In this document: positions 3,276 through 47,643 of the stretch, piece by piece
Numbering within the stretch: the stretch's first letter is position 1
How the letters are laid out: the number at the start of each line of letters is the position of its first letter
Origin: a virus
Lineage: Duplodnaviria; Heunggongvirae; Uroviricota; Caudoviricetes
Strand: one strand, 5' to 3'
DNA length: 64,000 nucleotides
Virus record (IMG/VR): IMGVR_UViG_3300014204_000143
Notes under the pieces: model-generated
What the model saw: only the letters and a program-made list of their open reading frames with translations
Told to the model about the DNA's origin: nothing
The model's database searches: none
Program-made: the position numbers and the translations under genes

Positions 3276-3276
3276 T

Positions 3277-3379
3277 AGCTAGTTTATCCCGCTGGGTTAG
3301 CATTAGTTATTTACAACTAGTTTATCCCATTGGGTTGACGTTAGTTATTTATAACTAATGTTATAATTAATAAATAAAG
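3277..3379 (+). promoter_or_regulatory. Two tandem copies of a ~38-bp element (TTTATCCC-N3-TGGGTT-N4-TTAGTTAT) followed by an extended -10 (TGTTATAAT at 3359-3367), ~20 nt upstream of ATG 3388
   Basis: Seen directly. The same element plus TGTTATAAT recurs at 11933-11991, upstream of ATG 12017. Confidence 0.45.
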
Positions 3380-3387
3380 TAAAAAAA

Positions 3388-4788
3388 ATGATAACAATTA
3401 GAGCCGACAATCTTATTCTTACAAAAAACTCTCCATATTCGTATTTGAATACCAATTATATTGCAGGTGTCACAGATATGGTGGTTGTTAATTGGATTGA
3501 TTTTAAACCAGATGACTACGTTTTAATTGGAGAATGGGGTTCAGAAAACACAGAAATTGTTCAAGTATCTTCTATAAAGGGGTCTACAAATACAATTACC
3601 CTTAAGGTTGCAAGTAAATTCTCTCATGCTGAAAGTACAAAAGTAACCATTATTAGATATAATATGGTGTTGTTTTATCACACAACAACTACCACATTTT
3701 CTACTGGAACTCACGTTAGACAAAAATCATATCTTGGAAATGATACTACTCAATTTGATATAACTAATCCAGCAGGAACAACATTTAGATATACTTGGGA
3801 CGGAACAGGAACTAATCCATTAATTGCAGACTTCGCAGTAATCGGAAATTCGGTTTATATTTCTGCTCAAAACTTTAATGCTAGCAATAATGGAACATTT
3901 GTTATAACAGGAAAAGGAACTAATTATTTTGAAGTTACTAATGCTTCTGGTGTAATTGAATCTAATAAAACAATTGGAACTGGTTCGGTTGCTATTAAAT
4001 CAGATAGACTTGCAATTGCCTCTGATAGTCAATTTACTGATATTTTTGATGATACTTATACAACTGGATATGGTTGGTATTTATTTTATAACTCTACCAC
4101 TGATACTGTAACTCAACAAAGTAATTATATCCCCTATAGTGGATTTGAAGAAGACTCAACCAAGAGTGTTCTCGACAGATTCTTTGATATTCTCTCTAAC
4201 TCTGAACAGAAACTTATTACAACTGATATGGCCTACTCGTGGATGAATGAGGGTTATTCTAAAATATATAATGCTCTCGGACTAGTTAATAAAGAATATA
4301 ACTCACCAAGTTCAGTTACAATCACAACTACTTCTGGAACAGCTGAGTATCTTATTTCTACTTATATGACAGATTTTGCAGATATTATTTCTGTTTATTG
4401 TGGCACTGAAGATAACGAAGTTGGAAATATATCACTAGACAAAATAGATGGTTGGAATTCCGAAACCGACAACACTGTTAAATATTTTATTCGAGGGAAT
4501 TATATTGGTTTTTCTCCAGTTCCAGCGGCGGCAACTGCTTATACAATTCGCTATGCCACGAAGTCAGCAACGGTCTCAAGCTATATTGATGAATTAAATT
4601 TACCAGATGGAAGTTTCTACTGCGTGACTGACTGGATGCTTTTTAGAGCCAGTATGAAGGCTAGTAGTATTGATGGAGCAATGCACAAAAACTTATTTGA
4701 TGAAGCTGTTAAGGTAATGCAATTAGTTTCTCACAAAAGAGACGCTAATCTAGATAGTTGGGGAATTGCTAATAACGCTAACGTTTAA
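3388..4788 (+). CDS. Structural (tail-fibre/baseplate-like) protein carrying one copy of the 'FDITNPAGTTFRYTWDGTG' repeat domain
   Basis: 466-aa ORF. Residues ~120-200 match the repeat domain found six times in ORF 6762..11708. Preceded by the promoter-like element. Confidence 0.5.
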   Translation: MITIRADNLILTKNSPYSYLNTNYIAGVTDMVVVNWIDFKPDDYVLIGEWGSENTEIVQVSSIKGSTNTITLKVASKFSHAESTKVTIIRYNMVLFYHTTTTTFSTGTHVRQKSYLGNDTTQFDITNPAGTTFRYTWDGTGTNPLIADFAVIGNSVYISAQNFNASNNGTFVITGKGTNYFEVTNASGVIESNKTIGTGSVAIKSDRLAIASDSQFTDIFDDTYTTGYGWYLFYNSTTDTVTQQSNYIPYSGFEEDSTKSVLDRFFDILSNSEQKLITTDMAYSWMNEGYSKIYNALGLVNKEYNSPSSVTITTTSGTAEYLISTYMTDFADIISVYCGTEDNEVGNISLDKIDGWNSETDNTVKYFIRGNYIGFSPVPAAATAYTIRYATKSATVSSYIDELNLPDGSFYCVTDWMLFRASMKASSIDGAMHKNLFDEAVKVMQLVSHKRDANLDSWGIANNANV

Positions 4789-4790
4789 TT

Positions 4791-5234
4791 ATGGCAGGTA
4801 GTAAAACAAAAAACTCTCAACGACTTACAATTCAATACTTCGAAGGTGTCAACGCTCAGGTTGGAAATAACTTATCTAAAACAACCGAACTCAGGCACGT
4901 CGAAAACGCCAGAAGTAATAAAATTGGAATCATCGAGAAGCGGACTGGTAAAACTTTAACAGGAGATGATGTGGATACATTAAGTGTCTACTCCTTGTTT
5001 TATTTTGATAACGCTGGAGCAACAAATACGGGACTCTATATGGTGATAGATTTCAATAATAGTACAACCACCTCATCGACTTCTTCAAGCACTTCAAGTT
5101 CAACTACGTTTACAAGTTCAACAAGTAGTTCTACTTCGTCTAGTACGTCATCGAGCACGTCTAGTTCGACTACCTTTACAAGTTCAACTTCATCGTCAAC
5201 ATCTTCATCAACTAGTTCAACAACTACTTTATAA
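4791..5234 (+). CDS. Small structural-module protein with a C-terminal STSSS-repeat tail
   Basis: 147-aa ORF. The C-terminal ~50 aa are STSSS/TTFTSS repeats. Tightly coupled to its neighbours. Confidence 0.45.
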   Translation: MAGSKTKNSQRLTIQYFEGVNAQVGNNLSKTTELRHVENARSNKIGIIEKRTGKTLTGDDVDTLSVYSLFYFDNAGATNTGLYMVIDFNNSTTTSSTSSSTSSSTTFTSSTSSSTSSSTSSSTSSSTTFTSSTSSSTSSSTSSTTTL

Positions 5235-5237
5235 AAT

Positions 5238-6761
5238 ATGTCAGCAAAATTATATTATTTAAATACATCAGGAGTTTGGACATTAATGACAGACCCAGAT
5301 TTGGCTGGTCTTGCTAGTGCTAGAGTCGACACAACGGTCGCTGAGGGGTGTTGCTTTATGGTAAACGGAACAAGTAACAACCTCTACATTATGGCAACTG
5401 GAACGACTGTAGTGCCTTCTACGACCGCTACAGGGCATCTGTACAACTCTCCAAAAGCAAGAAAGATAAACTACTATAAAGATAGACTCTACCTCGGAGA
5501 CTATACCGTTGGTTCAATTAGATATAAAAATGGAATTGCACTCTCTTCGAATCCAATGGGAATCCTCTCGCTTATAAATGAGGATGTTACCCCATCAGGT
5601 TCAACGGTTATAAAAGTAACCGATACAAAATATATTAGAACGACTGATTTGTTAGAAGTCTACAGAGGTTCTGTTAAAATAGCAACTTTAACGGTAACTA
5701 AAAAAACAGAAAGTTCTATTACGGCCACAGTTGTATTTGAAATAACTGTCCCAGCAACTACTACATTATTAAGTGCTGACGAACTCTGGGTAAGTGGAAC
5801 TTATAGCGGAACCAGATTGTTTAGATGGTGCGATAGATTTGCGAGTGGTGTTGATGTAAAAGAATATGACAGTTTTAGAATTACTTGTGACCAAAACGAA
5901 AGTATAAAAATGTTAGTTAATATCGGCGATGTTATGATTATTGGAACTGATAATAGTTTAGCCGCCTGGAACGGAACCAATCTTCAAAACTATGATATGG
6001 GAATCGGGTGTGTCAGTGAGAATGGTTATGTTAAACACGGTTATCTTTTCTTTATTCACTATACGGGTATCTATAGAACTTCAGGAGAAAGTCCTCAATT
6101 AATTTCTGATAAAATTAAACCATATATTGATGGAGCAACTAAAAGCGGACTAGAAAGTGCTTGTATGGGAAAGAAAGGTGACAGTATCTTTTGTTATATC
6201 GGAGATGTAACACTCTACAACGAAGATGGCAGTATCGATAAAACTCTAAGCAATGTTACTCTTGAATATAACTTACGACAAGGTAATTGGTTTGTACATA
6301 CTGGAATAGAAATAAAACAGTTCTGTACATACCCACAAGAAACTGATAGCACCTCACTTCAAATAATTGATAACAGTGATAGAAATATTTATGAATTCTT
6401 ATCTGGGGAAACCGACAATGGAACAGTGATTCCTTTTAGAATGGATACCGAAGAAATTAATTTTGGGGGTGAAATTGAAAGTTTATTCTCTTTAAGAAAA
6501 ATAATTTTAGAAGTTGAAAGAGGAACAAACATTCATATCTTTTTAAGTCTAGATGGTGGTGCTTGGTATGAATTAAAAACTACCGCCACTAAGGGAGCAA
6601 ATACAATCGCTATCACTGCCAAGGATGATAATAATAGTGCTCCTCCAAGATGTCGTCGTGTCAGAATAAGTATGCGACACAATGAAAAACAATTATGTAA
6701 AATAAGTAGACTCGCTTTAGAATATAGTTCAAGTATAGAAGAAGAAGAAAATAGAGCATAA
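5238..6761 (+). CDS. Hypothetical virion/tail protein
   Basis: 507-aa ORF inside the co-directional structural block. Its stop overlaps the next start (TAAATG at 6759-6764). Confidence 0.4.
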   Translation: MSAKLYYLNTSGVWTLMTDPDLAGLASARVDTTVAEGCCFMVNGTSNNLYIMATGTTVVPSTTATGHLYNSPKARKINYYKDRLYLGDYTVGSIRYKNGIALSSNPMGILSLINEDVTPSGSTVIKVTDTKYIRTTDLLEVYRGSVKIATLTVTKKTESSITATVVFEITVPATTTLLSADELWVSGTYSGTRLFRWCDRFASGVDVKEYDSFRITCDQNESIKMLVNIGDVMIIGTDNSLAAWNGTNLQNYDMGIGCVSENGYVKHGYLFFIHYTGIYRTSGESPQLISDKIKPYIDGATKSGLESACMGKKGDSIFCYIGDVTLYNEDGSIDKTLSNVTLEYNLRQGNWFVHTGIEIKQFCTYPQETDSTSLQIIDNSDRNIYEFLSGETDNGTVIPFRMDTEEINFGGEIESLFSLRKIILEVERGTNIHIFLSLDGGAWYELKTTATKGANTIAITAKDDNNSAPPRCRRVRISMRHNEKQLCKISRLALEYSSSIEEEENRA

Positions 6762-9700
6762 ATGACTCAAAAAAATTACAATTCAATAGATAATCCCTAC
6801 GATAGTTTTTTAAATCGTACCGATGCTGGAGCGTCAACCGTTGTTAATAGTGGTCAGGAATATGGAGGGACAACTTTTACCGATAGTGGAAATGGTGGTT
6901 CGGCTAGTCCCAATGGTTCTCCAGATGTTTCTAGTCCTAATGATGTTTCTGGGGGTTCGATTCAAGGTTCAAGTTTTCAAAGTATCTGGTTAAAGGACTG
7001 GATTAAATCAAGAAATTACAAACCGAAATCTGTCGGTTTTTATATTGACGGTAAAACTGGTTACGCTGAGTTTGTGAATGTTTATGTGAGTGGTAACATT
7101 CAAGCTTTGTCTGGTTTGATTGGTGGATTTACAATTGGAGCGACAAACTTATCGGCAACCTCTGGTGGAAATACTACAATTGTGTCTAGTGGCTCAACTG
7201 CCTTTAGTGCTGGACCAACTGGTGCTCCAACTTTTTATGTTACTCAGGCTGGAGTTTTAAATGCAACTGGGGCGATTATTTCTGGAACATTAACTGCCAC
7301 AACTGGTTATATTGGAGGTTGGTTAATTAATGCAACTAATTTATCGGCAACTGGAATAATCTTAGACTCTCTAAATCAGCAAATTAAAGTTGGTGCTACT
7401 GACCCAATTATAATTGATGGTTTATTAAAAGAAATTGAAAGTAGTAATTATGTTTCGGGTGCTTTTGGTGCTGGATTCCACTTAGATAGTAATTTATTTG
7501 AAGTTGGTAATATTTCGTGTCGAGGGATGATACGAACTTCTGTATTTCAAAAAGATTTAATTAATGTGATGGGTGGAAGTTTTGTTGTTCTTGATGGTGA
7601 TATTTTAGATACAACGATGACTGCACTTGACACCGCAACTATTACAACCAAAGGAACGGTCAATTTTTCAATCAATGATATATTAAGAATTAAAGAAGAT
7701 ATTGACGATGAATGGTTTAGAGTTACAAACGTTTCTGGACATCCAACTTATGTTGTCACAAGAGACTTGGCTGGAATGTATCCATCAAATACAAATCCAT
7801 GCTGGACAAAGGGATCAACTATTGTAAATTATAGACAGAGTGGAGATGGTGGAGTTTTTATGACAGCAACAGAAACGGATGCACCTTATCTTAGTATTTT
7901 TGACCATGCAGGTTCTCCGTGGACTACGATTAATACTAGACTTAGACTTGGTAATTTAAACGGATTTTTAGGTTACTCTTCTGACTTATATGGAATTGCA
8001 ATTGGAGAAACCAATTCATACTTAAAATATGATACCGACAATGGATTAAGAATTAAAGGAGATATTACAATTACAGGGGGGAATGCTTCTGTAACATTTT
8101 ATGAATCAACTGAACCAGTATCTGGAATGAAGGCTGGTGATTATTGGGTTGATTCAGATGACAATTCTCTTCATGTATATCAGGGAGGTGTATGGGTACT
8201 TGTTGCCGCATCGGGAGTTAAAGTTTTTTCTGCTGAACCAACCACTCCTTATCATGTTGGAGATTTATGGGCAAGCGGAGTCTTTCTTAAAATATGTAAT
8301 CATGAACTACTAACTGGTGTTTATAATCCTTTAGACTGGAGTTATGCTACTGGATATACCGATGATACTGTAGCAAATTCTAAAATAAAAACGTTTATTC
8401 AAACAACAATTCCAACTTCTATTTCTGCTGGAGATTTGTGGATTGATTCCGATGATGGAAACAAACTTTATCGTGCAACTAATGCGGGGGATACAACAAT
8501 TGGTCCAACGGCGTGGGTAGTTGTTCCAATTGACTTTGCTAATATAAATGGTGCAACTAAACCAGAAAATAATGCTACCGTTGGAGCTACTTGGGGAACA
8601 AATCTTGTAAACATTCCAGGAACATTGGGAACTCCAACTGGAACTGGTTTGTTTCTTTCTTCCACTCATTTAGGTTTCTATGATGCTCCAAATTGGAAAA
8701 CATATATGGATAGTTATGGGAATTTTTATTTAGGAGGGACTTCTGGTAAATTACAGTGGGTTGCTGGAACAAATACTCTCACAATTACTGGTATTATAAA
8801 TGCCGATAGTGGAACAATTGGAGGATTTACTCTTGGTGCTGATTATATTCGTGATTCTGCTAATGGTGTTGGATTAGCATCAACTGTTAGTGGTGGAGAC
8901 GATGTTAGGTTTTGGGCTGGAGATACTTTTGCCAATAGAGATATTGCTCCATTTAGAGTTTATGAATCTGGTAATGTAGTTATGGAGAGAATCACAGCTT
9001 CAAATATTCAAGCATATGATGCTATTGTAGATATAAATGGTGGAGGAGACTATTATGATTTATATGGTGCAGTTTTAAATGGTGCTAAAAAGATATTTAT
9101 TAGAAACGGTGAATATATTTTGACTTCACAACTAGATATTGCACAAGAAAATGTAAAAATTGAAGGACAGTCTCGTGATAAAACAATCATAACTAGAGCA
9201 AGAGGTGGTAATAATATTTATTTTTTATTGGGTGATGGAACTACTCAATGGGACGTAACTAATCCAGCAGGAACAACATTTAGATACACATGGAATGGTC
9301 AAGGTTATGAACCAGATTTTTCTAAACTAAAAGATGGCTATAATATATTGATAGAATCAAGTAGTGGAACTAGTTATCTTGATTATGATAATACTGGAAA
9401 TTTTTGTATTACTGGAACTGGAACTACTTATTTTGAAATTACTAATTCTTCTGGTGTTGTAGAAACTGGAAAAACAATTGGACTTGACGATACTAGTTAT
9501 ATAAAGATAAGACCAAAAGCTATATATGGTTATGCTACTGGTGGTGGTGGTGGAAACCTAACAGAATATACAGTTACTAATCCAGTTGGAACAACGTGGA
9601 GATACACCTATACTGGAGTTGGAGGAGACCCAGATATAACTACTAGAGTTAAGGTTGGAATGTTAGTTGATATGATTGATTCTTCATTTTCTACTAATAA

Positions 9701-11708
9701 TAAAGGGCTATATACAGTAACTGGAATTGGAACAGATTATTTTGAAGTTGACAAAGTCGCAGGAACGGCAGAAAGTAAATATTGTTCAGGCATTTATTTA
9801 TATTCTAGTGTTATTGGTGATTCCACATCACAGTTTGATATTACCTGTCTTGATAGTGTTAAAAAAATATTTAGATATACCTGGGACGGGACTGGAACAG
9901 ACCCAAACATATTACAGTTGACTCATGGTGAGAATATCTATATAAAAGCACAAAATTTTTCTTCAGTGAATAATGGTCATTTTGTAATTTTAAATCCAAC
10001 ATCAACTACTTTTGATATTCATAATGAGATTGGAGTTGCAGAAAATAATAAAACAATTGGTACGGGATATATTATAAAAGTTAATACTTATCTTGGAGAC
10101 TCTTCAACTCAGTTTGATATAACAAATCCATCAACTGGACTGTGGAGATACACTTGGGACGGAACAGGAAAGAACCCACACATAGAAGAACTCGTATCTG
10201 TTTATGATACTATGTATATTAATGGTTCAACTTTTGCATCAAATAATAGGGGAAAAAGAGTTTATGTTTATGCCGTTGGAACTGATTATTTTGAAATTAA
10301 AACAGAGACAGGAACGGTTGAATCTAATAAAATTCTTGGAACTGGATATATTGAACACGTGAAAGGATATGTAATAAATAATTGGGGAGAAAAAACTGAA
10401 GTTAGCAATCTCAAATTTATAGAATCTGGAAACTATCGTTATGGTTGTTTGGTTTCTTTAAATAGCTTAAGTATTCATCATACCGATTTTGATACGCAAG
10501 AATCTCAAAGCTCTTTAATGCCATGTATAGTTGATAGGAGTGGTAGTCTAACATTAAAAAATTCTTATCTTATTAGTTATTCTAATTGTGTAGTTAGATT
10601 TCCCTACTCAGGGAATGAAACTGTTATAAGCGAAAATCATTTTGAATCTTATTATGGTTCAAGTGTTTATGAAACAATGACTTCATATAGAATAGGTGGA
10701 AGTTCTTCTAGATTTGATATAACTAATACTGCTGGAGATACATGGAGATATACATGGGATGGTACAGGGACTGACCCTGGAATATCTACTGGCTGGAGTT
10801 TTTATGCAGTTATTGTTTATGCTGAAAATTTTACAGGAAGAAATAATGGAATCTTTCAAATAACAGATTCTGGGCTTAATTGGTTTGAAGTTACAAACAT
10901 AAATGGATATGCAGAAAACAACAAAACAATTGGAGAAGGTTATATAGAAAAAATGATTTCTGGAGGTTTTTATAAGTTTGTTTTTGAAAAAAATTATTGT
11001 TATCGTGGTATGTATAATTCTTCCAGTAGTTATATTGCAAATATTCCAGGGGCATTAAATATTGTTGGAGACGGAACAGTTATAAGAGATAATACATTTT
11101 TTGCACAACCTTCAAATTATACTCCAGCAGTCAGACTATTTGGAGTTAATAGTATTGTCACTGGAAATAAATTTAATAGTTATCCTGAAAACTATTCTGC
11201 AAATGGTGGTCTTGGTATTCATATTACAGCCAAAGGCAGTTGTGTTATAGAGAATAATATATTTAATGCCCTAAGCATTGGAATTCTTTTAGATTATTAT
11301 GAAACAGACAATGGTTGTGGTCATGCATCTACAAGCAACAATCTGTTTAATTTTGTGGTTGGAGAAACTAATGGTTATGGTATATCAATTCTTTCCCCAA
11401 TTTCAAAAATGGTAATTTCTGGAAATCATCAATATTGTGGAGCTTCTTTAATTGACCAACAGTATGGTTCTTCTAATTTAACAGTAATAAATAATATTGT
11501 TACTAATTCTGCCGCAGAAGCCTTTTTAATGCAAAGTCTAACATATTCTGTCTTTAGTAATAATCAAACAAAAGATTGTTATCTTGGATATGACATTTCT
11601 GGAGCAGATTATTGTACGATTTTGGGCAATATATCTCAGGGTAACGCAAATTCAGATGACGTTGCTGGTATTACAAACAGCGAAACGGCTCACAATTTAT
11701 TCTTATAA
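6762..11708 (+). CDS. Giant tail fibre/tailspike. It has six ~95-aa repeat domains (9230-10956) and a C-terminal right-handed parallel beta-helix-like region (NNIFNALSIGIL..., ISGNHQYCG..., ~10960-11708).
   Basis: 1648-aa ORF. The internal motif FDITNP-x-GT-x-RYTWDGTG...NNG-F...GTDYFE...NKTIG-GY recurs six times. The C-terminal periodic motifs are typical of pectate-lyase-like tailspikes. Confidence 0.6.
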   Translation: MTQKNYNSIDNPYDSFLNRTDAGASTVVNSGQEYGGTTFTDSGNGGSASPNGSPDVSSPNDVSGGSIQGSSFQSIWLKDWIKSRNYKPKSVGFYIDGKTGYAEFVNVYVSGNIQALSGLIGGFTIGATNLSATSGGNTTIVSSGSTAFSAGPTGAPTFYVTQAGVLNATGAIISGTLTATTGYIGGWLINATNLSATGIILDSLNQQIKVGATDPIIIDGLLKEIESSNYVSGAFGAGFHLDSNLFEVGNISCRGMIRTSVFQKDLINVMGGSFVVLDGDILDTTMTALDTATITTKGTVNFSINDILRIKEDIDDEWFRVTNVSGHPTYVVTRDLAGMYPSNTNPCWTKGSTIVNYRQSGDGGVFMTATETDAPYLSIFDHAGSPWTTINTRLRLGNLNGFLGYSSDLYGIAIGETNSYLKYDTDNGLRIKGDITITGGNASVTFYESTEPVSGMKAGDYWVDSDDNSLHVYQGGVWVLVAASGVKVFSAEPTTPYHVGDLWASGVFLKICNHELLTGVYNPLDWSYATGYTDDTVANSKIKTFIQTTIPTSISAGDLWIDSDDGNKLYRATNAGDTTIGPTAWVVVPIDFANINGATKPENNATVGATWGTNLVNIPGTLGTPTGTGLFLSSTHLGFYDAPNWKTYMDSYGNFYLGGTSGKLQWVAGTNTLTITGIINADSGTIGGFTLGADYIRDSANGVGLASTVSGGDDVRFWAGDTFANRDIAPFRVYESGNVVMERITASNIQAYDAIVDINGGGDYYDLYGAVLNGAKKIFIRNGEYILTSQLDIAQENVKIEGQSRDKTIITRARGGNNIYFLLGDGTTQWDVTNPAGTTFRYTWNGQGYEPDFSKLKDGYNILIESSSGTSYLDYDNTGNFCITGTGTTYFEITNSSGVVETGKTIGLDDTSYIKIRPKAIYGYATGGGGGNLTEYTVTNPVGTTWRYTYTGVGGDPDITTRVKVGMLVDMIDSSFSTNNKGLYTVTGIGTDYFEVDKVAGTAESKYCSGIYLYSSVIGDSTSQFDITCLDSVKKIFRYTWDGTGTDPNILQLTHGENIYIKAQNFSSVNNGHFVILNPTSTTFDIHNEIGVAENNKTIGTGYIIKVNTYLGDSSTQFDITNPSTGLWRYTWDGTGKNPHIEELVSVYDTMYINGSTFASNNRGKRVYVYAVGTDYFEIKTETGTVESNKILGTGYIEHVKGYVINNWGEKTEVSNLKFIESGNYRYGCLVSLNSLSIHHTDFDTQESQSSLMPCIVDRSGSLTLKNSYLISYSNCVVRFPYSGNETVISENHFESYYGSSVYETMTSYRIGGSSSRFDITNTAGDTWRYTWDGTGTDPGISTGWSFYAVIVYAENFTGRNNGIFQITDSGLNWFEVTNINGYAENNKTIGEGYIEKMISGGFYKFVFEKNYCYRGMYNSSSSYIANIPGALNIVGDGTVIRDNTFFAQPSNYTPAVRLFGVNSIVTGNKFNSYPENYSANGGLGIHITAKGSCVIENNIFNALSIGILLDYYETDNGCGHASTSNNLFNFVVGETNGYGISILSPISKMVISGNHQYCGASLIDQQYGSSNLTVINNIVTNSAAEAFLMQSLTYSVFSNNQTKDCYLGYDISGADYCTILGNISQGNANSDDVAGITNSETAHNLFL

Positions 11709-11715
11709 TAATAAT

Positions 11716-11934
11716 ATGGAAAAAAAATACATTAAAGATGGTGAAAAAATTTATGAAGTTAATAAAGAAATAGATAAAATATCCGAACTAAAAGAAATTG
11801 ATAAGAAAATAACCAAATTAAACGAGTTAGAGGCAATGAGAATTAAAGAGATTCATGACAGTTATGTGACTAAAATAGAACTTCTCCAAAGTAGAAAAAC
11901 TGAATTAATAAATACTAGAGAAACCCCATTATAG
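11716..11934 (+). CDS. Small coiled-coil protein (~72 aa)
   Basis: ATG at 11716 (MEKKYIKDGEKIYE...). The track ORF 11584..11934 shares this frame, but its upstream part overlaps the 1648-aa gene, so the internal start is preferred. Confidence 0.35.
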   Translation: MEKKYIKDGEKIYEVNKEIDKISELKEIDKKITKLNELEAMRIKEIHDSYVTKIELLQSRKTELINTRETPL

Positions 11935-11991
11935 TATAACTAATGTTATCCCCTTGGGTTGGCGTTAGTTATACATAACTAATGTTATAAT
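11933..11991 (+). promoter_or_regulatory. Single copy of the TTATCCC...TGGGTT...TTAGTTAT element plus extended -10 TGTTATAAT (11983-11991), upstream of ATG 12017
   Basis: Near-identical to 3316-3379. Palindromic arms ATAACTAA/TTAGTTAT flank the element. Confidence 0.45.
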
Positions 11992-12016
11992 TAACATATA
12001 AAGATAAATAAAATTT

Positions 12017-14680
12017 ATGGCTCAAAGATATTTTGCATGGTTTACTGATAACAAGGGAGTACTACAGTCAATGAGTGCTGATACTAAAGAAGAGGCACTG
12101 GCTGACGCAAATTCTAGGGGTTGGACACTTACTTCGGGTCAATATGGTGGCTGGCCAACAAAACCAACTAGTCCGACTCCAATAACTCAACCTCAGGTTC
12201 AACCAAAACCAATTGTTTCTAATCCTATAAATCAAGAAGAAACTCAAGTAACTCCTGAGTATGTTTATGATAACATTAACTCTGTAATGAATAAAAACGC
12301 AGTTAATCATTTATTCAAACAATATTACGGTCGTGATGCTACTCAGACAGAATTAGACTATTGGGAAAAGAAAACGACAGGAAGTCTAGAAGATAAATTA
12401 AGACCAAACGCTTATAAGTTCCCTAACGCACCAATTCATACAACTTCATATTCTGCTGATGGTAGACCAGCAACATCTAGTGGCGAAACCATAGTTCCTC
12501 CACCAGTTCAAGAAACAGAACCAACTCAACCAGAAGCAACTCAACCAATTATACAACCTCAAGACCCAACAGAAGTAGCCCAGTCTAATTTTAATTTTTC
12601 TGGTAGAACCGCTCTTGTTAAGTTTAGCGACGACCCTACTCCTAGTGGTGATGGCGACTCTAGCACTGTTTGGTTATTCGATACAATTACTAAAACATAT
12701 CGACCATTTCTTTCGATGGATGCTATTAATGCTATTTATGGAGATGATGCTCCAGAGTATATAGCTAACATAGAAACTCTCCCAACTACTGTTTTAAATA
12801 ATGATACGTGGAAAGGTTCGTTCTTGAGTGAAACTGAAGGATTTGATTCCGAAGGACTTGCTGGCGGAAAAAATATTTATGATGTTCTCTCTGTCTCTGG
12901 AGTTAAAACTATTTATAATAAAGTAAAAGACTATAACCTAGAGTCTTGGGCTGGTCAATTTGTTGACTTGATATTTTCAGAAGCCAAGGATAAAGGTGCT
13001 ATTACCGAAGAACAATTTAAAAAGTATTTAGAAGACCCAACACAACTAGCAGAATATATCAATGCAATTGCTTATGGTGGTTATACCGCCAAAGATGTTC
13101 TCGCAGATATGAAAGCTAAAGAATTAGGATTAAATATTAAACCAATCTCTTCTACTATACCAGCCGATAAATACGCTACAACGACTGAAGGACTGGAAGC
13201 AAAAAATAATAATCAAATTCAAACAGATGTCTCAACTTTAGGTTTAGACCAGAATTTATTTAATAATAAAGTTTCAGATATACCGATTGCATCTTTAACG
13301 AGCCTAATGCCAAACCTTGACTGGAATAGTGAAGAATTTAAAAATGCTGCTGAAGAAATTCAAGCCTCTTGGTATGACATTCAGTCACAACTTGCTTCGG
13401 CAACTAATGAACAAGAAAAGGCTGTCGCTGATGCTAACTTTGCTAAATTTAATTCTGATTTAGAAAAAACTTATGGAATCAAACTTAGCGATAACGCTGA
13501 TGAAGCTTGGGGACAACTTGAAACAATGTTTTCAGACTACGGTAAGGCTGGACTAGGTAACTCTGGTTTATTTAATGAAGCTATGGATACTTATACCGCT
13601 GGGGTTAGGCAGGCTGGTGATAGATTAAGAGATGAAAAAGCCGATAGTCAAACCACTGAAGAAATTAACTATCTATTAAAAAGTGGAACACCAGAACAGA
13701 TTGCTGCCTACGAAGCCTCTCATCCAGGTTTTGCCGACAAATATGGACTTAAACCAAGTGCTGAACAGCTTGCGTGGTGGAGTGATTCGTCTTTGGCAGA
13801 GAGATACCCAGATATGTCAGTCGAAGAACGAAATAAAATTAAAGGAATGATAATTGATGAAAATGGAAATTATAGGAGTAATCTTTATCAAACTCTTTAT
13901 ACAAATCAAAATAATCTCGCTGACCAGAAGAGAACGTATCAAGAAGGAAAATTAGCAGAACAGAGACAACAAGAAGCCAACAAAGTTGCTGATGTTTCTA
14001 CTGGAGCTACTATTCTGTATGACCAAAATATTCAAAATATGTTAGATTCAAATTCTTATGATTTAACTCCTGGAACGGTAACTCAAGATACAACGACTTC
14101 GCAAACTCCATTCTCAACTTCTTCGACTCCGCCAACAGGGGCAACATTAATTTCTGATAAAACAGAATATGATTCTCTGGTTGCTAATGGACTTACTGAG
14201 TCTCAGATATGGAGAGACCCAAATAGCGACAAAATTTATCGATTACCGACATCTACTACACCCACACAAACTACAACATCAACCACAAGTTCGTTAGGAA
14301 GACTTTTGGGTCCAACAGAATATGCACAATTAAGAAATCAATATGGTGTTTCTGATTCTAATTTTTCTCAATATTTTACTAGAGATGGAACAAATATCTA
14401 TTTAAAACCAACAGCACCAACTTCTTCAACACCTTCAACAAGTGCTGTTACTTCTGCGGCTGCCAACATTTCAAATTCTTTATCAGGAACAACAACTCCG
14501 ACAACAACCACTTCTAGTAGTAGTTCGTCTCCTTATTCAGAATATATGGGTCAATTTGGAACAACTAGAGTTTTTGGTTCAAGTAGAGAAGCTGTTGAGG
14601 CTGAGGCAAGAGCTGGTGGATTAAGTTTAACTGGTGCAACGTATAAAGGATATAATAATGGTACTTGGAGTTTAATTTAA
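12017..14680 (+). CDS. Large hypothetical virion protein with Pro/Thr/Gln-rich linkers
   Basis: 887-aa ORF with low-complexity P/T/Q-rich segments. Lies in the structural block behind the promoter-like element. Confidence 0.4.
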   Translation: MAQRYFAWFTDNKGVLQSMSADTKEEALADANSRGWTLTSGQYGGWPTKPTSPTPITQPQVQPKPIVSNPINQEETQVTPEYVYDNINSVMNKNAVNHLFKQYYGRDATQTELDYWEKKTTGSLEDKLRPNAYKFPNAPIHTTSYSADGRPATSSGETIVPPPVQETEPTQPEATQPIIQPQDPTEVAQSNFNFSGRTALVKFSDDPTPSGDGDSSTVWLFDTITKTYRPFLSMDAINAIYGDDAPEYIANIETLPTTVLNNDTWKGSFLSETEGFDSEGLAGGKNIYDVLSVSGVKTIYNKVKDYNLESWAGQFVDLIFSEAKDKGAITEEQFKKYLEDPTQLAEYINAIAYGGYTAKDVLADMKAKELGLNIKPISSTIPADKYATTTEGLEAKNNNQIQTDVSTLGLDQNLFNNKVSDIPIASLTSLMPNLDWNSEEFKNAAEEIQASWYDIQSQLASATNEQEKAVADANFAKFNSDLEKTYGIKLSDNADEAWGQLETMFSDYGKAGLGNSGLFNEAMDTYTAGVRQAGDRLRDEKADSQTTEEINYLLKSGTPEQIAAYEASHPGFADKYGLKPSAEQLAWWSDSSLAERYPDMSVEERNKIKGMIIDENGNYRSNLYQTLYTNQNNLADQKRTYQEGKLAEQRQQEANKVADVSTGATILYDQNIQNMLDSNSYDLTPGTVTQDTTTSQTPFSTSSTPPTGATLISDKTEYDSLVANGLTESQIWRDPNSDKIYRLPTSTTPTQTTTSTTSSLGRLLGPTEYAQLRNQYGVSDSNFSQYFTRDGTNIYLKPTAPTSSTPSTSAVTSAAANISNSLSGTTTPTTTTSSSSSSPYSEYMGQFGTTRVFGSSREAVEAEARAGGLSLTGATYKGYNNGTWSLI

Positions 14681-14688
14681 AATAATAT

Positions 14689-15255
14689 ATGGACTTACCA
14701 CAAAATACACAATATAAAAGTGATTATGTTTCTAAACTGATGCCTCTTGTTAGTGCGATTACGGCTAAAGGAAAACAAACATCACAACCAACCCAGCAAA
14801 CTTCATTGCCTCGTATTTCGGGTACACCAAGTTCACTCTCTCAATTTCCTATCACAACTCCTTATGGTGGAAGTACAAACTATGAACCAGGTGGAACTCA
14901 CGGGGGGATAGATATAGGAACACCAACAGGAACTTCACTTCCAGCAATTCAAGGAGGAACAGTGACGGATGTTGTTACTGGAAAAGGATGGACTCCAAAA
15001 ACACCTTCTTATGGGAATACAATTACGGTAAAAGACAATGAGGGAAATTTATGGAGATACTCACATTTGTCAGACGCTTACGTTAAGGTTGGCGATACAG
15101 TTAATACTGGTCAAGCAATTGGAACAAGTGGTTATTCAGGTTCAACATATAGTGCAAAAAATCCGAATAGTCCTGGTCCGCACGTAGATATAAGGTTGCT
15201 CAAAAACTTATCTGGAAGGTATGTTGAAGAAAATCCCCAGCAATATATACGGTAA
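14689..15255 (+). CDS. Peptidase M23 (LytM-like) domain protein, a candidate virion-associated peptidoglycan hydrolase
   Basis: HxxxD motif (THGGIDIG) followed by Gly-rich beta strands and ...GPHVDIR, as in M23 endopeptidases. Confidence 0.55.
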   Translation: MDLPQNTQYKSDYVSKLMPLVSAITAKGKQTSQPTQQTSLPRISGTPSSLSQFPITTPYGGSTNYEPGGTHGGIDIGTPTGTSLPAIQGGTVTDVVTGKGWTPKTPSYGNTITVKDNEGNLWRYSHLSDAYVKVGDTVNTGQAIGTSGYSGSTYSAKNPNSPGPHVDIRLLKNLSGRYVEENPQQYIR

Positions 15256-15268
15256 CAAATAATAAACA

Positions 15269-17140
15269 ATGGAATATCAACTAACAAATAACGGTAAACA
15301 ATCTAAAGCGTTTGCTGTTAAAACAATTTTAAAAAGTAAAGAGTTAAGAAATGTTATTAGTGAAGGAATGAAAGCTTCTCCTGGTAGCACTAAAAGACAG
15401 AAAGCCTACAAACTCTTATCAACCCTCAATAAATCTGGGAGTAATTTTTATTCTGATGGTATGGGAGGTGCTCCAACTGGTTTCAATCCTTTTGCTTATA
15501 AGAACGTTAGAGAGACCATTGCTGGACCAACAACTCAACAACCAACCTCACAGTCTGTTTCAATGGGAGAACAAGTTCCAGAACCTGTAGATTACAGCAA
15601 ACGAACAATATTTATTAAGAGTGCCGACCCAAAGCAATACGTATCACCTGCATCGCAGTCAACATCGACATTAATGTCTGGGATGTCTTATGACCCTAAT
15701 GCAAACAATACAACAACTCCTGGTTCAACTCCAGAAACTTCAACAACGGGCACAACTTCTTCAACGACCAATATCACTCTTCCGAGTTCTTATTCTGATA
15801 CGTCAACAACTAGTGGAATGTCTTCATCAAGACTACTTGATTTAAAAAATTCTGGGTTAGGTGCAACTGGTTTAAGAATCGCCGTTATGGCAGACCCAAC
15901 CTTATTGGATGACTTAGGGTTACCACAAGATGTGATTGATTCATTCCCAACTGAATCACTGGCTGAACAAAAGAAAACACTTCAAAATAGTTTATTAAAA
16001 AAATATAGAATTGAATCATTAGAAGACGGTCTGATTAATAAATACAAACAGAACGCCAACATTACAACCGACTTGAGAAATTACCTTGCTGAGACTGATA
16101 CCTATTTTAAGAGTATTGATAAACTCTATAATAAAACATTGGAACAGTCGGCCTATATGGATACAAGTAATCCAGAAGTAGCAAAAAGAGTTAATAATTA
16201 CACCAACTATTTACAGATACTTAGAAACAAACAAAATGACAGAAATGTTTCTTTTATTGAGATGGCTGGAGACCAAGTAGAAAAACAGTTAGAAGCGTTA
16301 AAGTTTGAGTATAAGACAAAGTATGACCAATTCTCAAGAGAATATAATACTGAAGCAGAATTAACAACCGAAACATATAATGACTACAAAAAAATAATTG
16401 AGGAGATGACTTCTAATTTAGATGAACAACAGGTGGTATTAAAAATGAATCAAGAGCTAAAATTGGGTGCTGATGGGTGGAATGGGTGGACAATTAAAGA
16501 CCTAACATCAAAAGATGAGGCTAAAAGAACGGCTCAAGAAATGAAAGATAGCGGGAGTAATTATTATGATATTGATGCAACTATTAGTAAGTTTAAAATA
16601 ACTCCAGCAGAAAAGAAATCTATCTATTATAACCTTGGGATAACAGAACCGAAAACTACAACGACAACAAATTGGACGAGACTAGAAGAACTTATGAATA
16701 GTTCAGAGGGACAGAAAAAGTCTGATGCAGAACTTTTACAGTGGTTAAAAGAAAAGAATGATGAAGAAAAACTAGGAGTTACGGCAGATGCAGATTATAC
16801 AAGTAAAATTAAGACAAGAATAGTTCCTGAACCAGATATAAAAAAAGACGTGTATGACATGATAGCAACCGAAGGAATGTCTGGTCCTCAAATAATGACA
16901 ATTCTTTCATCTGTTCCAGAAATAAAACTTAAACAAGCGGTTATAAATACTATATCTGAACTTAGAAAATTAGGATATACAGAAAAAGATTTAAAAGAAC
17001 AACTTAAATTAGATAACGCCACTTTAAAAACTGGAGGAGTTCCAGAAACTTGGTTTAAAGAAGGTTGGAATTTAGGAGCAACTGCAAGTAAAAAATTTCC
17101 AAATAGTATCAAAAGTTTAATAAATTATTTTAAAAAATAA
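15269..17140 (+). CDS. Hypothetical structural-module protein
   Basis: 623-aa ORF, co-directional and tightly packed. Confidence 0.4.
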   Translation: MEYQLTNNGKQSKAFAVKTILKSKELRNVISEGMKASPGSTKRQKAYKLLSTLNKSGSNFYSDGMGGAPTGFNPFAYKNVRETIAGPTTQQPTSQSVSMGEQVPEPVDYSKRTIFIKSADPKQYVSPASQSTSTLMSGMSYDPNANNTTTPGSTPETSTTGTTSSTTNITLPSSYSDTSTTSGMSSSRLLDLKNSGLGATGLRIAVMADPTLLDDLGLPQDVIDSFPTESLAEQKKTLQNSLLKKYRIESLEDGLINKYKQNANITTDLRNYLAETDTYFKSIDKLYNKTLEQSAYMDTSNPEVAKRVNNYTNYLQILRNKQNDRNVSFIEMAGDQVEKQLEALKFEYKTKYDQFSREYNTEAELTTETYNDYKKIIEEMTSNLDEQQVVLKMNQELKLGADGWNGWTIKDLTSKDEAKRTAQEMKDSGSNYYDIDATISKFKITPAEKKSIYYNLGITEPKTTTTTNWTRLEELMNSSEGQKKSDAELLQWLKEKNDEEKLGVTADADYTSKIKTRIVPEPDIKKDVYDMIATEGMSGPQIMTILSSVPEIKLKQAVINTISELRKLGYTEKDLKEQLKLDNATLKTGGVPETWFKEGWNLGATASKKFPNSIKSLINYFKK

Positions 17141-17143
17141 TTA

Positions 17144-20100
17144 ATGGCACTTACTAATCCCTTTGCTTATTCAAGTCAGAAACCAATTGACTTATCTCCA
17201 AGAATAAGTAATCTACCAAAAATTAAACCAACAACGCCAACTCCGTCATCATTTATAAGTGGTGACCCTTTTGCGTTAAAAACACCCCCAGTTACTTCTT
17301 CGGCAGTTAAACCTGCACCAGATGACGCCTTTAATTTAAAAGAAGCACCAAATACAACCGCACCACTTTCTTATCCATCTGTAGTTAAAAACATTACGAC
17401 TCCAACGGTTACTCCAAAAGCACCAATAACAACTGATTATACTAAACCATTTCAATTACCAGTAGTCACTCAAACTTTAAAGACTACTCCAGTTTCAGAT
17501 ATAATGACAGGAATGAGTCAACCTAGACAAGACTTAATTGAAAGAGCAACTAAATTTAGTACAACGCTAGATTTACCAAAAGTTAATCAATTATCAAATA
17601 ATACGTTTATAAAAAATAATATTCTTCCAGAAAATACTATTATTGGTAAAAATTCATTTGAAAAATATAATTTACCAGAATCGTTTATTAGTAAAAAAAA
17701 TAAAGAAGGAATTAAGTTTAAAAGCGAAAGTAAAGTAAAAGATATTATTGACTCTTTAAAATTAGGTTCATTAAATATTAAAGAACTTTCTAAAAATTAT
17801 TTTTTAGATACTCTACCTAAATTTGTCAAGATGGTTTTTGACGTAAATTCGACTCAAGATATAATAAATAACCCATTACTTAAAGAGAGTGAAAAAAAAG
17901 ATATTATAAAATCAGTAGAAAACGAGTCTAGTCAAATTGTTAACGTGACACAACCAATTTATGATAAACAAAAAATAAAATTTGAGGAATTTAAAAGAAA
18001 TAATCCACAATTAGTTATGTCAGAATATCCTGGTTATGGATTTGAAGATTCTATATATGATACTTTAAAAAATAATCCAAAATTAATTTTAGACCCAAAG
18101 TTTATAGCAAATGCCGCTGCTAAATCTGCTGGATATACTGTTGCTGTAATGGTTCCAGCTGTGCTTGGGACATTAACTACTGGAAATATTGCAAGTGGAA
18201 CACTTCTAAGTACTATTGCATTAATTCCTTCGTTATCACAAGATTTAACAGAAGAAGCAAAAATAAATGGAGCAACTGACGAACAAGCTGCTATTATTGG
18301 TGCAACAATTGGTCCAGTTATAGCTAAGTTAGAAAATGTTGGAGAGTTAGCTATTTTATCTAGACTGTCATCTGCTTTTAAAACTTCTTTTTTACAAAAT
18401 GTTACGAAAGACGTTGTAGCTGTTACTACTAAACAATTGGCTAAACGTGGAGTTAAAGATTTTGGGAAGACTGAGATACTTGAAATTTTAGAAGAAAATT
18501 TACAACAAATAGCTGGAAACGCTGCAATTAAAACCATCAACGAAAATCGAGAAATATTTAGCGGGTTAGATTATACTACGATAGAAACTGCAATAGCAAG
18601 CATCCCAATGGCAATGTTTGGTGCAAGTTCGTCTTTTGTTGGTTCATATTTGGGTAAAAAATCTAAACAATATCAAGAAGCATCTCCAGAAGAAAAAACA
18701 AGGATATTAAATGAACTTGTTCCTGCCTTATCTGTTCAAAACCTATCCGAACAACAACCAGAAACTCTACCAAAAATAACACCTACAGTCACCCCACAGA
18801 ATGCCCCTGTGACCTCACAGAATGCCCCAGGTGAGGCGATAACACCAAACGTGATTAAAGTTACCTTGCCAGAAAAAAAGATAATAGATATTGATAAAAT
18901 ATCTGATTTAAATAAACAACTTAGTATTAATAATACCAATAAATTTAGAAATGAAACAATTAACGGTTTAAATGAAAATCAAAGAGTTGAAGGAAAGCTT
19001 TTTGATAATTTAAAAAAATCATTAGTGTTTGATAAAAACATAAAAGAATACAATGTTGTTCCTATTTATAGAGCAACAAAAAATAATTCAATTATTCCTG
19101 GAGACTTTGTTACAACAAATAAAGAATTGGCGGTTAAAAAATATATAAATCAAAGAAATGGTTCAAGTTTAAAAACTCTAAATGTTCCTATAAATAACTT
19201 AGTTAAAACACTTGGTCTTAAAAGTGAATTTTTATATTATCCAAAAAATAAAGTTACCTTGCCAGTAGTTAAGTCAGAAAAAATTAATGTTCCCAATACT
19301 CCAAAAGAAATTAAAAAGACTTATTATAATCCAACAGAAGATGTTACTATTTATAGAGTTAAAGAAGATAACACAATTGAAACAAAAATAGTTAAAGGTA
19401 GAGATGTTGATAATTACATAAGACAAGAAACTTGGTCAACTACAAAACCAAAATCTGTAAGTGCTAAAAAAATAATAGGCAAAGTTCCTTCACCGATTAT
19501 AAAAAGAAAAGAAACAACTCTACTCAAAGATAGAATCAAAAATTTTGCTAGAGGTGTTAAAAAAGGTGGCACGTGGTCAAGAGAAAGAATTAACAATACC
19601 TATACTAAATTAAATAGTATTATTAACGATTCTAATTTAGAGGCAAAAGATAAACTTAAGTTTAATACAGAAAAAAATAGAATTTTACGTTCGGCAAATC
19701 CAGAAACTGCCTTTATTAACATAAGTAAACCTTTGTTTGAAAAGATAACGGAATATGAAGAGGGAACTGCTAAAAAATATTATATTAATAAAATAGGTAA
19801 ATTAATAAAATCAACCGTTTCTAAAAATAACTCTTCTGGAATTTTAACTGGAAAATATGGATATTATCAACCAACTATTGATTTTATTTATAATAATTCA
19901 AAATTGACAAGCAAAGATATAGGTAACAGGATAAACGAGTTATCTATAAAAGAGAAGATAACAAATGAAGAGTCTGCAGAACTTATAATGTTAGAAATGA
20001 TACCAACGATAGACATGGACTCAAATCAATTAGAAAGTATTTATAACACATTAAAAGAACAACTCTTAATTGGAAGACAAGAACAAAGTTTAAAAGACTT

Positions 20101-23799: not shown

Positions 23800-24036
23800 T
23801 TATTTAATTAAGTTTTTTATTTTATTCCAGTCTATTTTTTTACCACACCACGGACAATAATTATACTTTGTAATACAAGACCTTCTTCCATCTAAAAAAG
23901 TTATGTTTCCTCTATTATAATTAATAAAATAAATTAACTCTGATAAATTCATTCTATTCTTAAGATCATATTCGTGATTTTCACAAATATCACAATCACA
24001 ATCTTTAAGTTTATTTGATGATTTTACTAATCCCAT
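23800..24036 (-). CDS. Small Zn-ribbon protein
   Basis: CDCDIC...CPWCGKK motifs. Overlaps the sbcC-like start by 26 nt. Confidence 0.3.
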   Translation of the reverse strand: MGLVKSSNKLKDCDCDICENHEYDLKNRMNLSELIYFINYNRGNITFLDGRRSCITKYNYCPWCGKKIDWNKIKNLIK

Positions 24037-28317: not shown

Positions 28318-29325
28318 TTATTTAATTAATTTATAAATTTCTAAAAGTAATTCAACGTCTAATTTATTTCTCTTTCCATAAAGTTCTAAAAGTTTTTCTA
28401 GTGGGAGTTCTAATAAGTTACCATCTTCTATATCTATCGTTTCTCTCGCTTTCGGAAATCTCTCAACGTAAATTCTAGCTTCAAACTTCTTAAGATATTC
28501 TTTTATTAAGTCTTTGTCTATTTTTTTGTCTGTTATAGTTACTTTAACAATTGAGTCTTCTGTAATTGATTCTAGGTCACTTTGTTTTGGGTCAACTAAC
28601 CCATAAATCCTTCTCCCAGGTAATTTAATAAAAGAAGTTTCCAAAGTGTCTTCGTTAAGTTTCATAATCCATTTTTGAGTTTCATTTACTTCCTGATTAA
28701 AAACACTTCCAAGAACTACTGTTTTATCTTTGTTTGAAAATTGATGAACGTGACCAGCGATAACGAGTTTGTATTTACTTTCTAATTCTGATTTTGATAA
28801 GATAACCTCATTAAAATTACAAGTGTTTATTCCAGAAGAAGTATTGATGTCAGAGATAGAGTGGTGCAAGAATAAAACTTCATTTGTTTTTAAACTCTTA
28901 CTAATAATCTTACTAGCGTCTTGGTAGTCTTTAGCACCAAGTTCTGGACTAGTTAGATAAGGTAAGAAGTCAAACTTACCAACTCTAGCAATTCCTTTTG
29001 TAAAGATATGCCATTTAGTATTTTTAACTTCAGACAGAAAGTCTAAAGCTGTTGTACCATCGCCATTCTTGCAGTGATTGCCTGAGATAATATAAACATC
29101 TTTACCATTAAACTTTTCAATAAAATTAACCAATTTAGAAATAGTATAAGAAGAGTTTGTTTTTGAGTTAAGCAGGTCACCCAGAAAAACAATCTTATCG
29201 CAGTCTTTGAATTGCTCGACTATAAAATCAAGAATTTCATTTTCTTCGTTGATTCTCTTATCTTCAATATATCTCGAATAAGATAAGTATGGTTTAAAAT
29301 GTAGGTCTCCAATTATTCCAATCAT
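28318..29325 (-). CDS. sbcD: SbcD/Mre11-like calcineurin-fold metallophosphoesterase nuclease
   Basis: Phosphoesterase motifs GDLH(F), VFLGDLLN, SGNHC and GHVH in canonical order. Confidence 0.55.
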   Translation of the reverse strand: MIGIIGDLHFKPYLSYSRYIEDKRINEENEILDFIVEQFKDCDKIVFLGDLLNSKTNSSYTISKLVNFIEKFNGKDVYIISGNHCKNGDGTTALDFLSEVKNTKWHIFTKGIARVGKFDFLPYLTSPELGAKDYQDASKIISKSLKTNEVLFLHHSISDINTSSGINTCNFNEVILSKSELESKYKLVIAGHVHQFSNKDKTVVLGSVFNQEVNETQKWIMKLNEDTLETSFIKLPGRRIYGLVDPKQSDLESITEDSIVKVTITDKKIDKDLIKEYLKKFEARIYVERFPKARETIDIEDGNLLELPLEKLLELYGKRNKLDVELLLEIYKLIK

Positions 29326-37568: not shown

Positions 37569-39408
<1,840 letters not shown>

Positions 39409-45340: not shown

Positions 45341-45429
45341 TGGAGGTCTTGGTTGGGAGTCGAACCCAAATACCTTGTATGTGGCTGTTCCTAACCACTA
45401 CGCTCTATCCAAATTGAGCTACCAAGACC
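45341..45429 (-). tRNA. tRNA gene (isotype unresolved, possibly His-like with a G-1 nucleotide). The anticodon region is unusually long.
   Basis: Reverse complement reads G-GTCTTGG TA GCTC AATTTGGATA GAGC ... TTGGG TTCGACT CCCAA CCAAGAC C. There is a perfect 7-bp acceptor stem, a canonical D-arm and a TPsiC arm (GGGTTCGACTCCC). The segment between the D-arm and T-arm is ~9 nt longer than standard. Confidence 0.6.
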
Positions 45430-47497: not shown

Positions 47498-47643
47498 GGT
47501 AGTGATTTCTTCGAAATCAAAAAAACTATTTCAGTAATCATCCAGTTCTCATACTTCTGGATGGTTATAGTGGGTTAGAAAAGTAGCAATTCGCAAGCCC
47601 CATAAGCTTGAGACACAGGTGCAAATCCTGTACCCGCCACCAA

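Follow-up and report, generated by a model that had tools for sequence, protein, structure and literature searches.

An unnamed beta-barrel module, arrayed in a tail fibre and inserted once in a head-tail adaptor of an uncultured tailed phage, as a candidate glycan binder

In the DNA of a tailed phage we identified a module of about 88 residues which is present in five copies in a large tail fibre and in one copy in a head-tail adaptor homologue, giving six copies in the window, i.e. the whole stretch of 64,000 nucleotides that was analysed. The module is a genuine, widespread and previously unnamed sequence family; its type of fold and its type of job are already known. Unusual is its arrangement here, an array of four copies plus one within a predicted beta-helix. 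Most likely, the module would serve as an accessory, non-catalytic and multivalent binder of host surface polysaccharide.

The window is located within a 92.7-kb metagenomic contig (ENA ERZ27247350, k141_1632479). The phage has a low GC content (about 30–37%) and encodes GroEL, RtcB, an RNA ligase, SbcCD-like nucleases and a helicase. Large structural genes form one co-directional block (nt 420–22222), in which the fibre ORF is followed by an M23 peptidase gene and then by further very large ORFs. The features relevant for this study are as follows:

3388..4788, + strand: head-tail adaptor homologue of the SU10 gp11 type, 466 aa, with one module (PF24175; phrog_399).
3733..3999 (aa ~116–204), + strand: module copy of the adaptor, a discrete insertion (external-family HMM, 5.7e-41).
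6762..11708, + strand: fibre ORF, 1648 aa, tail fibre/tailspike-like (ORF list and translation).
9003..9227 (aa ~748–822), + strand: predicted start of the beta-helix just before copy 1, DAIVDINGGGDY...IFIRNGEY...TIITR (marginal match to pectinesterase 3uw0).
9228..9503 (fibre aa 823–914), + strand: module copy 1 (external-family HMM, i-E 7.8e-26).
9546..9812 (aa 929–1017), + strand: module copy 2, with RYTYTGVG, the most divergent copy (HMM, i-E 4.1e-24).
9813..10085 (aa 1018–1108), + strand: module copy 3 (HMM, i-E 8.5e-30).
10092..10364 (aa 1111–1201), + strand: module copy 4 (HMM, i-E 2.1e-29).
10365..10691 (aa 1202–1310), + strand: predicted beta-helix turns between copies 4 and 5, no repeat (no HMM match; Beta_helix alignment of the orthologue P0005).
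10692..10958 (aa 1311–1399), + strand: module copy 5, set apart from copy 4 by the beta-helix turns (HMM, i-E 9.4e-32).
10959..11705 (aa 1400–1648), + strand: predicted C-terminal beta-helix (weak Beta_helix and NosD matches).

For detection of the copies independently of the window, an HMM was built from 161 domains of external proteins, none of them from this DNA. It detected the fibre copies at aa 823–914, 929–1014, 1018–1107, 1111–1200 and 1311–1398 with i-E values of 4e-24 to 9e-32 and the adaptor copy with 5.7e-41, and pairwise BLASTP among the six copies gave E values of 4e-5 to 4e-25 at 25–51% identity (25–37% between copy 2 and the other fibre copies). The homology and the positions of the repeats, as described in a first-pass annotation made from the sequence, are thus confirmed far beyond chance. 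The count of six fibre copies given there has to be corrected to five, since the external HMM detects exactly five plus one; no extra copy was found in the six reading frames when two distinct HMMs were run with hmmsearch --max at E values up to 10, and RYT[WY] motifs are present at five sites in the fibre and at one in the adaptor. Probably, the stretch aa 1202–1310 had been mistaken for the sixth copy. A degenerate copy in this stretch was considered and rejected, as it has no HMM match and a Beta_helix model aligns through the equivalent part of the orthologue P0005. Thirteen residues are the same in every copy: T9, R17, Y18, T19, G22, G24, P27, N50, G52, F64, G71, E74 and G80. The motifs originally quoted as invariant, an RYTW core and an NKTIG end, hold as a consensus and not for every copy: copy 2 carries RYTYTGVG and ends with KYCSGIYL, and copy 1 ends with GKTIGLDD.

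At the DNA level the copies are old, because Tandem Repeats Finder detected no repeat and only patches of 60–80% identity are left among them. Recent gene conversion between the adaptor and fibre copies was considered but is not convincing; the use of the same codon at identical residues is only modestly raised, with 0.76–0.81 for the adaptor copy paired with copy 1 and with copy 4 versus 0.50–0.71.

The fibre is well supported as an N-terminal fibre part followed by one C-terminal right-handed beta-helix, predicted to be interrupted twice, by four barrels and then by one. Single scores are marginal (23.2–23.7 bits at a cut-off of 25.9; E 0.002–0.1 in PDB searches), and the case for one interrupted beta-helix is made because they agree when combined. 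The segment preceding copy 1 (DAIVDINGGGDY...IFIRNGEY...VKIEGQSRDKTIITR) resembles the N-terminal start of the beta-helix of pectinesterase 3uw0, with a marginal E of 0.0097 when the single sequence is used and of 0.0021 with a profile of three orthologues, and the alignment with the latter continues beyond the junction left by deletion of copies 1–4. Behind copy 5, Beta_helix (E 5.7e-5) and NosD (E 5.3e-4) were matched, both below the gathering score, and PDB searches with the C-terminal region gave NosD and PL6 as weak matches. In the orthologue P0007, NosD reaches 28.1 bits and exceeds the cut-off of 23.6. When the modules were removed from P0005, Pfam Beta_helix spanned positions 96–246 and crossed the copy-5 junction at 193/194; this alignment includes the equivalent of the gap between copies 4 and 5 (aa 1202–1310). 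A homologue search with the spliced beta-helix gave zero matches.

The fibre ORF is identical to a database protein (P0004), and its flanks are also present in the orthologues P0005 and P0007, sharing just 27–44% identity (local BLAST). A comparison of copy number among related phages, as suggested in the first-pass annotation, revealed the same four-plus-one layout in both orthologous fibres recovered. Copies 3 and 5 have copies 3 and 5 of P0005, respectively, as nearest relatives (56% identity each). Since same-numbered copies of P0005 are the closest ones, the array is older than the split between these fibres and has been kept since.

The second gene carrying the module was assigned as an adaptor by its match to PF24175 (SU10_adaptor; E 3.2e-18, 67.3 bits at a cut-off of 27, aa 276–449), so that the gathering score is exceeded over its C-terminal 175 residues, and by a further match to phrog_399, a structural protein. 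As for SU10-type adaptors, the gene opens a conserved tail module, and the order of adaptor, fibre, M23 peptidase and large proteins is common to the window and L009/L010. Unlike SU10 gp11, the adaptor of the window has an additional N-terminal region and contains the barrel, which is inserted where the N-terminal part meets the SU10-type core. An adaptor orthologue of 375 aa from a syntenic phage contig (L009) is 45% identical and aligns on both flanks of the module, but lacks aa ~111–205 of the window protein. Because this orthologue lacks precisely the module, the latter is a discrete and dispensable insertion in the adaptor. The phage of L009 retains the four-plus-one array of the fibre despite its module-free adaptor. 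Together with the presence of the module in unrelated virion proteins, the module-free orthologue supports domain shuffling among virion proteins, as had been suspected initially. The shuffling had been assumed to occur between two receptor-binding proteins; the second gene, however, codes for an SU10-type head-tail adaptor and thus a neck protein. Separate transcription of this gene had also been supposed, but no promoter-like site is present in the 112-nt upstream gap: a sigma-70-like site was not found in nt 3276–3387, the site counts were below the shuffle expectation, and both genes belong to one co-directional block.

The extent of the family was estimated by profile search: exhaustive comparison with 1.84 billion cluster representatives yielded 557 protein clusters at E ≤ 1e-3, of which 404 remained at E ≤ 1e-10 and 94 at E ≤ 1e-30. 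When homologues of the six copies were sought with a word index, three fragments only were returned. Among 152 sequences examined, 126 contain one copy, 18 two, three sequences three, one sequence four and four sequences five copies. The members have a median pairwise identity of 56%, and the domain is located mid-protein as a rule. The module is carried by tail fibres, by Baseplate_J proteins and by adaptors of the SU10 type; one of the carriers (P0019) is encoded in a baseplate module adjoining a sheath-initiator gene. Pfam families found together with the module are Gly_rich_2 (21 members), SU10_adaptor (3), Baseplate_J (3), Laminin_G_3, Beta_helix and NosD, which is consistent with virion proteins. 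As far as seen, the matches point to a large family confined to phage virion proteins.

A degenerate DNA motif for RYT(W/Y)DGTGT(D/N)P was matched by 20 contigs of IMG/VR and by four from GTDB species genomes, all of which encode the domain according to the HMM. One chromosomal match (L015) belongs to Fimbriimonadaceae; a Pfam scan of its neighbouring genes yielded nothing informative. The ten clusters looked up originate from metagenomes only, and none of the ten has an informative name. BFVD contains one clear member, A0A6J5MXY5 of an uncultured Caudovirales phage (59% identical, TM 0.92), annotated as 'Uncharacterized protein'. In 50,697 GenBank phage genomes, tblastn with the fibre C-terminus, the adaptor and the family consensus gave no match even at E ≤ 1, and megablast of the region found no relative.

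The module also has no name in the family databases. When 126 family members were scanned, a Pfam model covered the domain at E ≤ 1e-3 in none of them, and NCBIfam and PHROGs gave no match to the module, in agreement with the first-pass annotation, in which the motif could not be assigned to a named domain. For the repeats themselves, the sole overlap in Pfam at E ≤ 1 was a sub-threshold MBG_3 match (PF18887), which is limited to the adaptor copy (17.7 bits at a gathering score of 25) and absent from the 126 members. A match to BIG_2 or a known CBM was searched for in Pfam, and none was obtained at E ≤ 1. Two further candidates were dismissed: SH3_1, with a sub-threshold Pfam score, and protocadherin from a PDB sequence search, where E rose from 0.02 to 1.1 with a deeper profile, indicating chance.

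Concerning the fold, an AF2 model of the adaptor copy (pLDDT 96.6) is a small closed beta-barrel with b.43-like neighbours, so that the module is predicted with high confidence to be a self-folding beta-barrel of about 88 residues. Modelling of one repeat had been recommended along with the suggestion of a resemblance to tandem Ig-like domains; the latter is not borne out, as the modelled fold is a closed barrel instead of a beta-sandwich and no Pfam match to BIG_2 or Ig-like families exists. Barrels that sit as accessory parts inside tailspike enzymes have been described before. The closest structural relative is the endosialidase of phage phi92 (endoN92, PDB 4HIZ), and the resemblance presumably falls on its nested beta-barrel; the small closed barrel of the module can be superposed on the endosialidase barrel.

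This raises the question of common descent with the endosialidase barrel, Pfam End_beta_barrel (PF12195; gathering score 35 bits). The model was unlisted at E ≤ 1 for fibre and adaptor and matched none of the 126 members at E ≤ 1e-3, while K1F gp17 as positive control was detected with 5.8e-48 and 161 bits. A match to End_beta_propel was also not found in fibre or adaptor, and a homologue search with the K1F barrel gave one match. Comparison by hhalign with seven and then nine endosialidase-type barrels, for which the endosialidase profile is shallow, gave P values of 0.02 and 0.006 and probabilities of 2.4% and 6%; 39–49 columns with equivalent central strands were aligned at a score that is not significant. 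By the standard that defines this Pfam family, the module does not belong to End_beta_barrel, and a common origin of the two is no more than possible. The endosialidase barrel (K1F endoNF aa 424–506) is a single domain within a six-bladed beta-propeller, whereas the module occurs as four plus one copies in a predicted beta-helix and in an adaptor. Endosialidase barrels have no counterpart of the signature N-terminal hairpin FDITNP..RYTWDGTGTDP, and their ligand-site residues are not shared with the module. Other barrels, i.e. those of FNR (FAD-binding), riboflavin synthase, uL3, EF-Tu domain 2 and the UBA1 N-terminal fragment, are 6–17% identical to the module; their biology is unrelated and the module has no cofactor motifs, so that the likeness is one of fold only.

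With respect to architecture, the closest systems are tailspike insertion barrels (KP34gp57, LKA1gp49, AP22 gp54 4Y9V), domains of about 100 residues inserted a few turns into a right-handed beta-helix. In KP34gp57 the beta-helix comprises residues 57–102 and 204–454, and the barrel insertion of residues 103–203 helps to form the substrate cleft (PMC10653864). The module is predicted to occupy the same topological position as an insertion barrel of the KP34gp57 type. In that type, one insertion domain completes an intra-chain catalytic cleft, whereas here five barrels are placed at two sites. A tandem array of insertion barrels is not described in PMC10653864, and no other example was met in a limited literature search.

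All of these observations can be combined in an account in which accessory glycan-binding barrel modules have been inserted in the beta-helix and the adaptor, to which we give somewhat better than even chances. Four tandem copies and a separate fifth would be inserted into two loops of the C-terminal beta-helix of the fibre, a putative depolymerase-type fold. If the fibre is trimeric, up to 15 modules would be displayed per fibre; if the adaptor is dodecameric as in SU10, 12 modules would surround the neck. The modules may give the phage a higher avidity for the envelope of the cell or help to keep the polymer in place at the beta-helix. A glycan-binding role is suggested because the structurally closest barrel, which is nested in a tailspike, binds polysaccharide in the K1F enzyme, where it accommodates one of the three sites for polysialic acid and acts as a hotspot of host discrimination (PMC12632334), and because the architectural relative is a barrel lining the cleft of a depolymerase. 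It is further suggested because the module was seen only in exposed virion proteins, because its copy number varies with clean gain and loss, and because the polar or aromatic positions R17, Y18, N50, E74 and K77 are conserved. Like the module, Ig-like virion domains (BIG_2, Hoc-type) are small, modular, often tandem, dispensable and exposed. The Ig-like domains are thought to bind glycans weakly.

The alternative to be taken most seriously is a structural decoration or spacer without ligand, which would stiffen or lengthen exposed loops, shield the beta-helix or fill space at the neck. We rate this reading at about one chance in four, as a spacer would not be expected to hold a median identity of 56% across unrelated host proteins or to conserve the Arg, Tyr, Asn, Glu and Lys positions named above, nor would an array of five copies be expected to persist in fibres whose flanks have diverged to 27–44% identity.

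High conservation is an ambiguous indicator in one respect, since the 56% median identity in unrelated host proteins would fit a conserved protein partner equally well as a glycan. The module may accordingly be a protein-protein docking unit which binds another virion component or itself, for instance in fibre-neck or fibre-fibre contacts. In line with this idea, the module is present in at least two virion genes of one phage in the window, in L011, in L023 and in L016/L026 (one viral contig), and in SU10 the adaptor is a dodecamer on which the long fibres dock (PMC9509320). The phage of L009, however, has five fibre copies and none on the adaptor, so that pairing of adaptor and fibre via the module is not essential, and the single copy in most of the family sequences examined (126/152), in diverse contexts, also speaks against docking, which we consider improbable.

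That the module is a diverged member of a named family (BIG_2, MBG, a CAZy CBM or PF12195) is very improbable, since MBG_3 stayed below its gathering score and matched no family member, BIG_2, CBM and PF12195 gave nothing at E ≤ 1 although the PF12195 control works, the fold is not Ig-like, and the hhalign probability against endosialidase barrels is 2–6%.

Returning to the glycan-binding account, a bolder version is conceivable, though we would bet against it: a lectin-like, unnamed barrel family of which one to five copies are plugged into any exposed virion protein and which recognises one widespread envelope glycan, a recognition that would account for the unusually high conservation. If this were true, the family would deserve a separate entry in Pfam or among the CBMs, its carriers would be phages of uncultured hosts, and its sites would be loops of depolymerase beta-helices, the baseplate wedge, fibres and the head-tail adaptor; the four-plus-one array in the beta-helix would then represent a new build of a multivalent tailspike.

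No concept is overturned by these findings. The host range of phages is determined mainly by their receptor-binding proteins, the modules of which mostly lack annotation. The module described here is common in metagenomes (557 clusters), yet absent from Pfam, NCBIfam, PHROGs and all of the 50,697 deposited phage genomes that were searched. With a name for it, tail proteins of uncultured phages could be annotated better. As a compact and well-folding candidate glycan binder, it may also be of use for engineering. Finally, the presence or absence of the module in the adaptor and the four-plus-one array in the predicted beta-helix may serve as natural experiments on the contribution of accessory modules to adsorption.

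The gene order of the tail module (window 3388-22222) was kept in a distantly related, syntenic phage contig (L009/L010), whose adaptor is 45% identical to that of the window. Common to both are, in this order, the adaptor, one or more mid-size ORFs, the five-module fibre, an ORF of ~900-1000 aa, an M23 peptidase, an ORF of ~620-760 aa, and an ORF of 1700-2200 aa. For none of the large tail-module ORFs in these regions was a Pfam or PHROG match obtained. A 147-aa ORF of the window (4791..5234), located after the adaptor and before the 507-aa ORF, contains a Ser/Thr-rich tandem repeat (5060-5229; units of 63-66 nt, 75% identical).

At the DNA level, 31 of 32 bases are identical between the module copy of the adaptor (3763-3794) and copy 1 of the fibre (9258-9289), a stretch encoding TNPAGTTFRY. 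The proportion of identical residues encoded by the same codon was, at 0.76-0.81, somewhat higher for the adaptor copy paired with copies 1 and 4 than for the other pairs (0.50-0.71). As evidence that sequence was once exchanged between the adaptor and fibre copies, this is weak and unconvincing.

The N-terminal part of the fibre contains a segment, INDILRIKEDIDDEWFRVTNVSGHPTYVVTRD (window 7656-7742, fibre aa ~299-327), similar to the module's second half (..FEVTN.SG..). Here, the module HMM matched faintly (i-E 4), as did SH3_1, and a 33-nt patch (7713-7745) is 76% identical to module copy 5 (10881-10913). On the basis of these similarities, the segment may be either a remnant or a distantly related barrel. 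The N-terminal half of the fibre has additional internal repeats: the motif G(L/Y)IGG(F/W)xIxATNLSAT recurs (window 7111-7159 and 7303-7351, and fibre aa ~690-700), as do GD(Y/L)W(V/I)DSDD..(L)(H/Y) motifs, around aa 460-480 and around aa 555-575.

Further phage genes and tRNAs in the window were the following:
24011-26116 and 28318-29325, minus strand, SbcC/SbcD-like nucleases
37804-39405, minus strand, GroEL-type chaperonin (phrog_5725, E 9e-151)
45341-45429, minus strand, tRNA-Pro(AGG), 89 nt, anticodon at position 38 (ARAGORN)
47569-47642, plus strand, tRNA-Met (ARAGORN)
61521-62900, minus strand, and 51128-52132, plus strand, RtcB tRNA-splicing ligase and RNA ligase
The tRNA-Pro(AGG) call is unusually long and may contain an insertion or be false.

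By DNA motif search of GTDB, the exact motif for RYT(W/Y)DGTGT(D/N)P was found in only 4 of 185,579 species genomes. Three matches (L012, L013, L014) are on contigs of 9.6-38 kb from Patescibacteria/CPR MAGs (Peribacteria, Saccharibacteria, and 'Patescibacteria group'), and one (L015) is on a 1.9-Mb Fimbriimonadaceae contig. Since the L014 protein has the layout of proteins on IMG/VR viral contigs (L023, L027, L032), the GTDB contigs are probably phage contigs binned with MAGs, or prophages; the bins are a possible hint to hosts.

Two different virion genes encode the module in each of several unrelated phages (L011, 8001-17280; L023, 6499-10679; L016/L026, which are one IMG/VR contig). In one such phage, a 2090-aa Baseplate_J protein has five copies and the gene two positions downstream has one. 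Deployment of the module in multiple genes is thus recurrent and not specific to the window.
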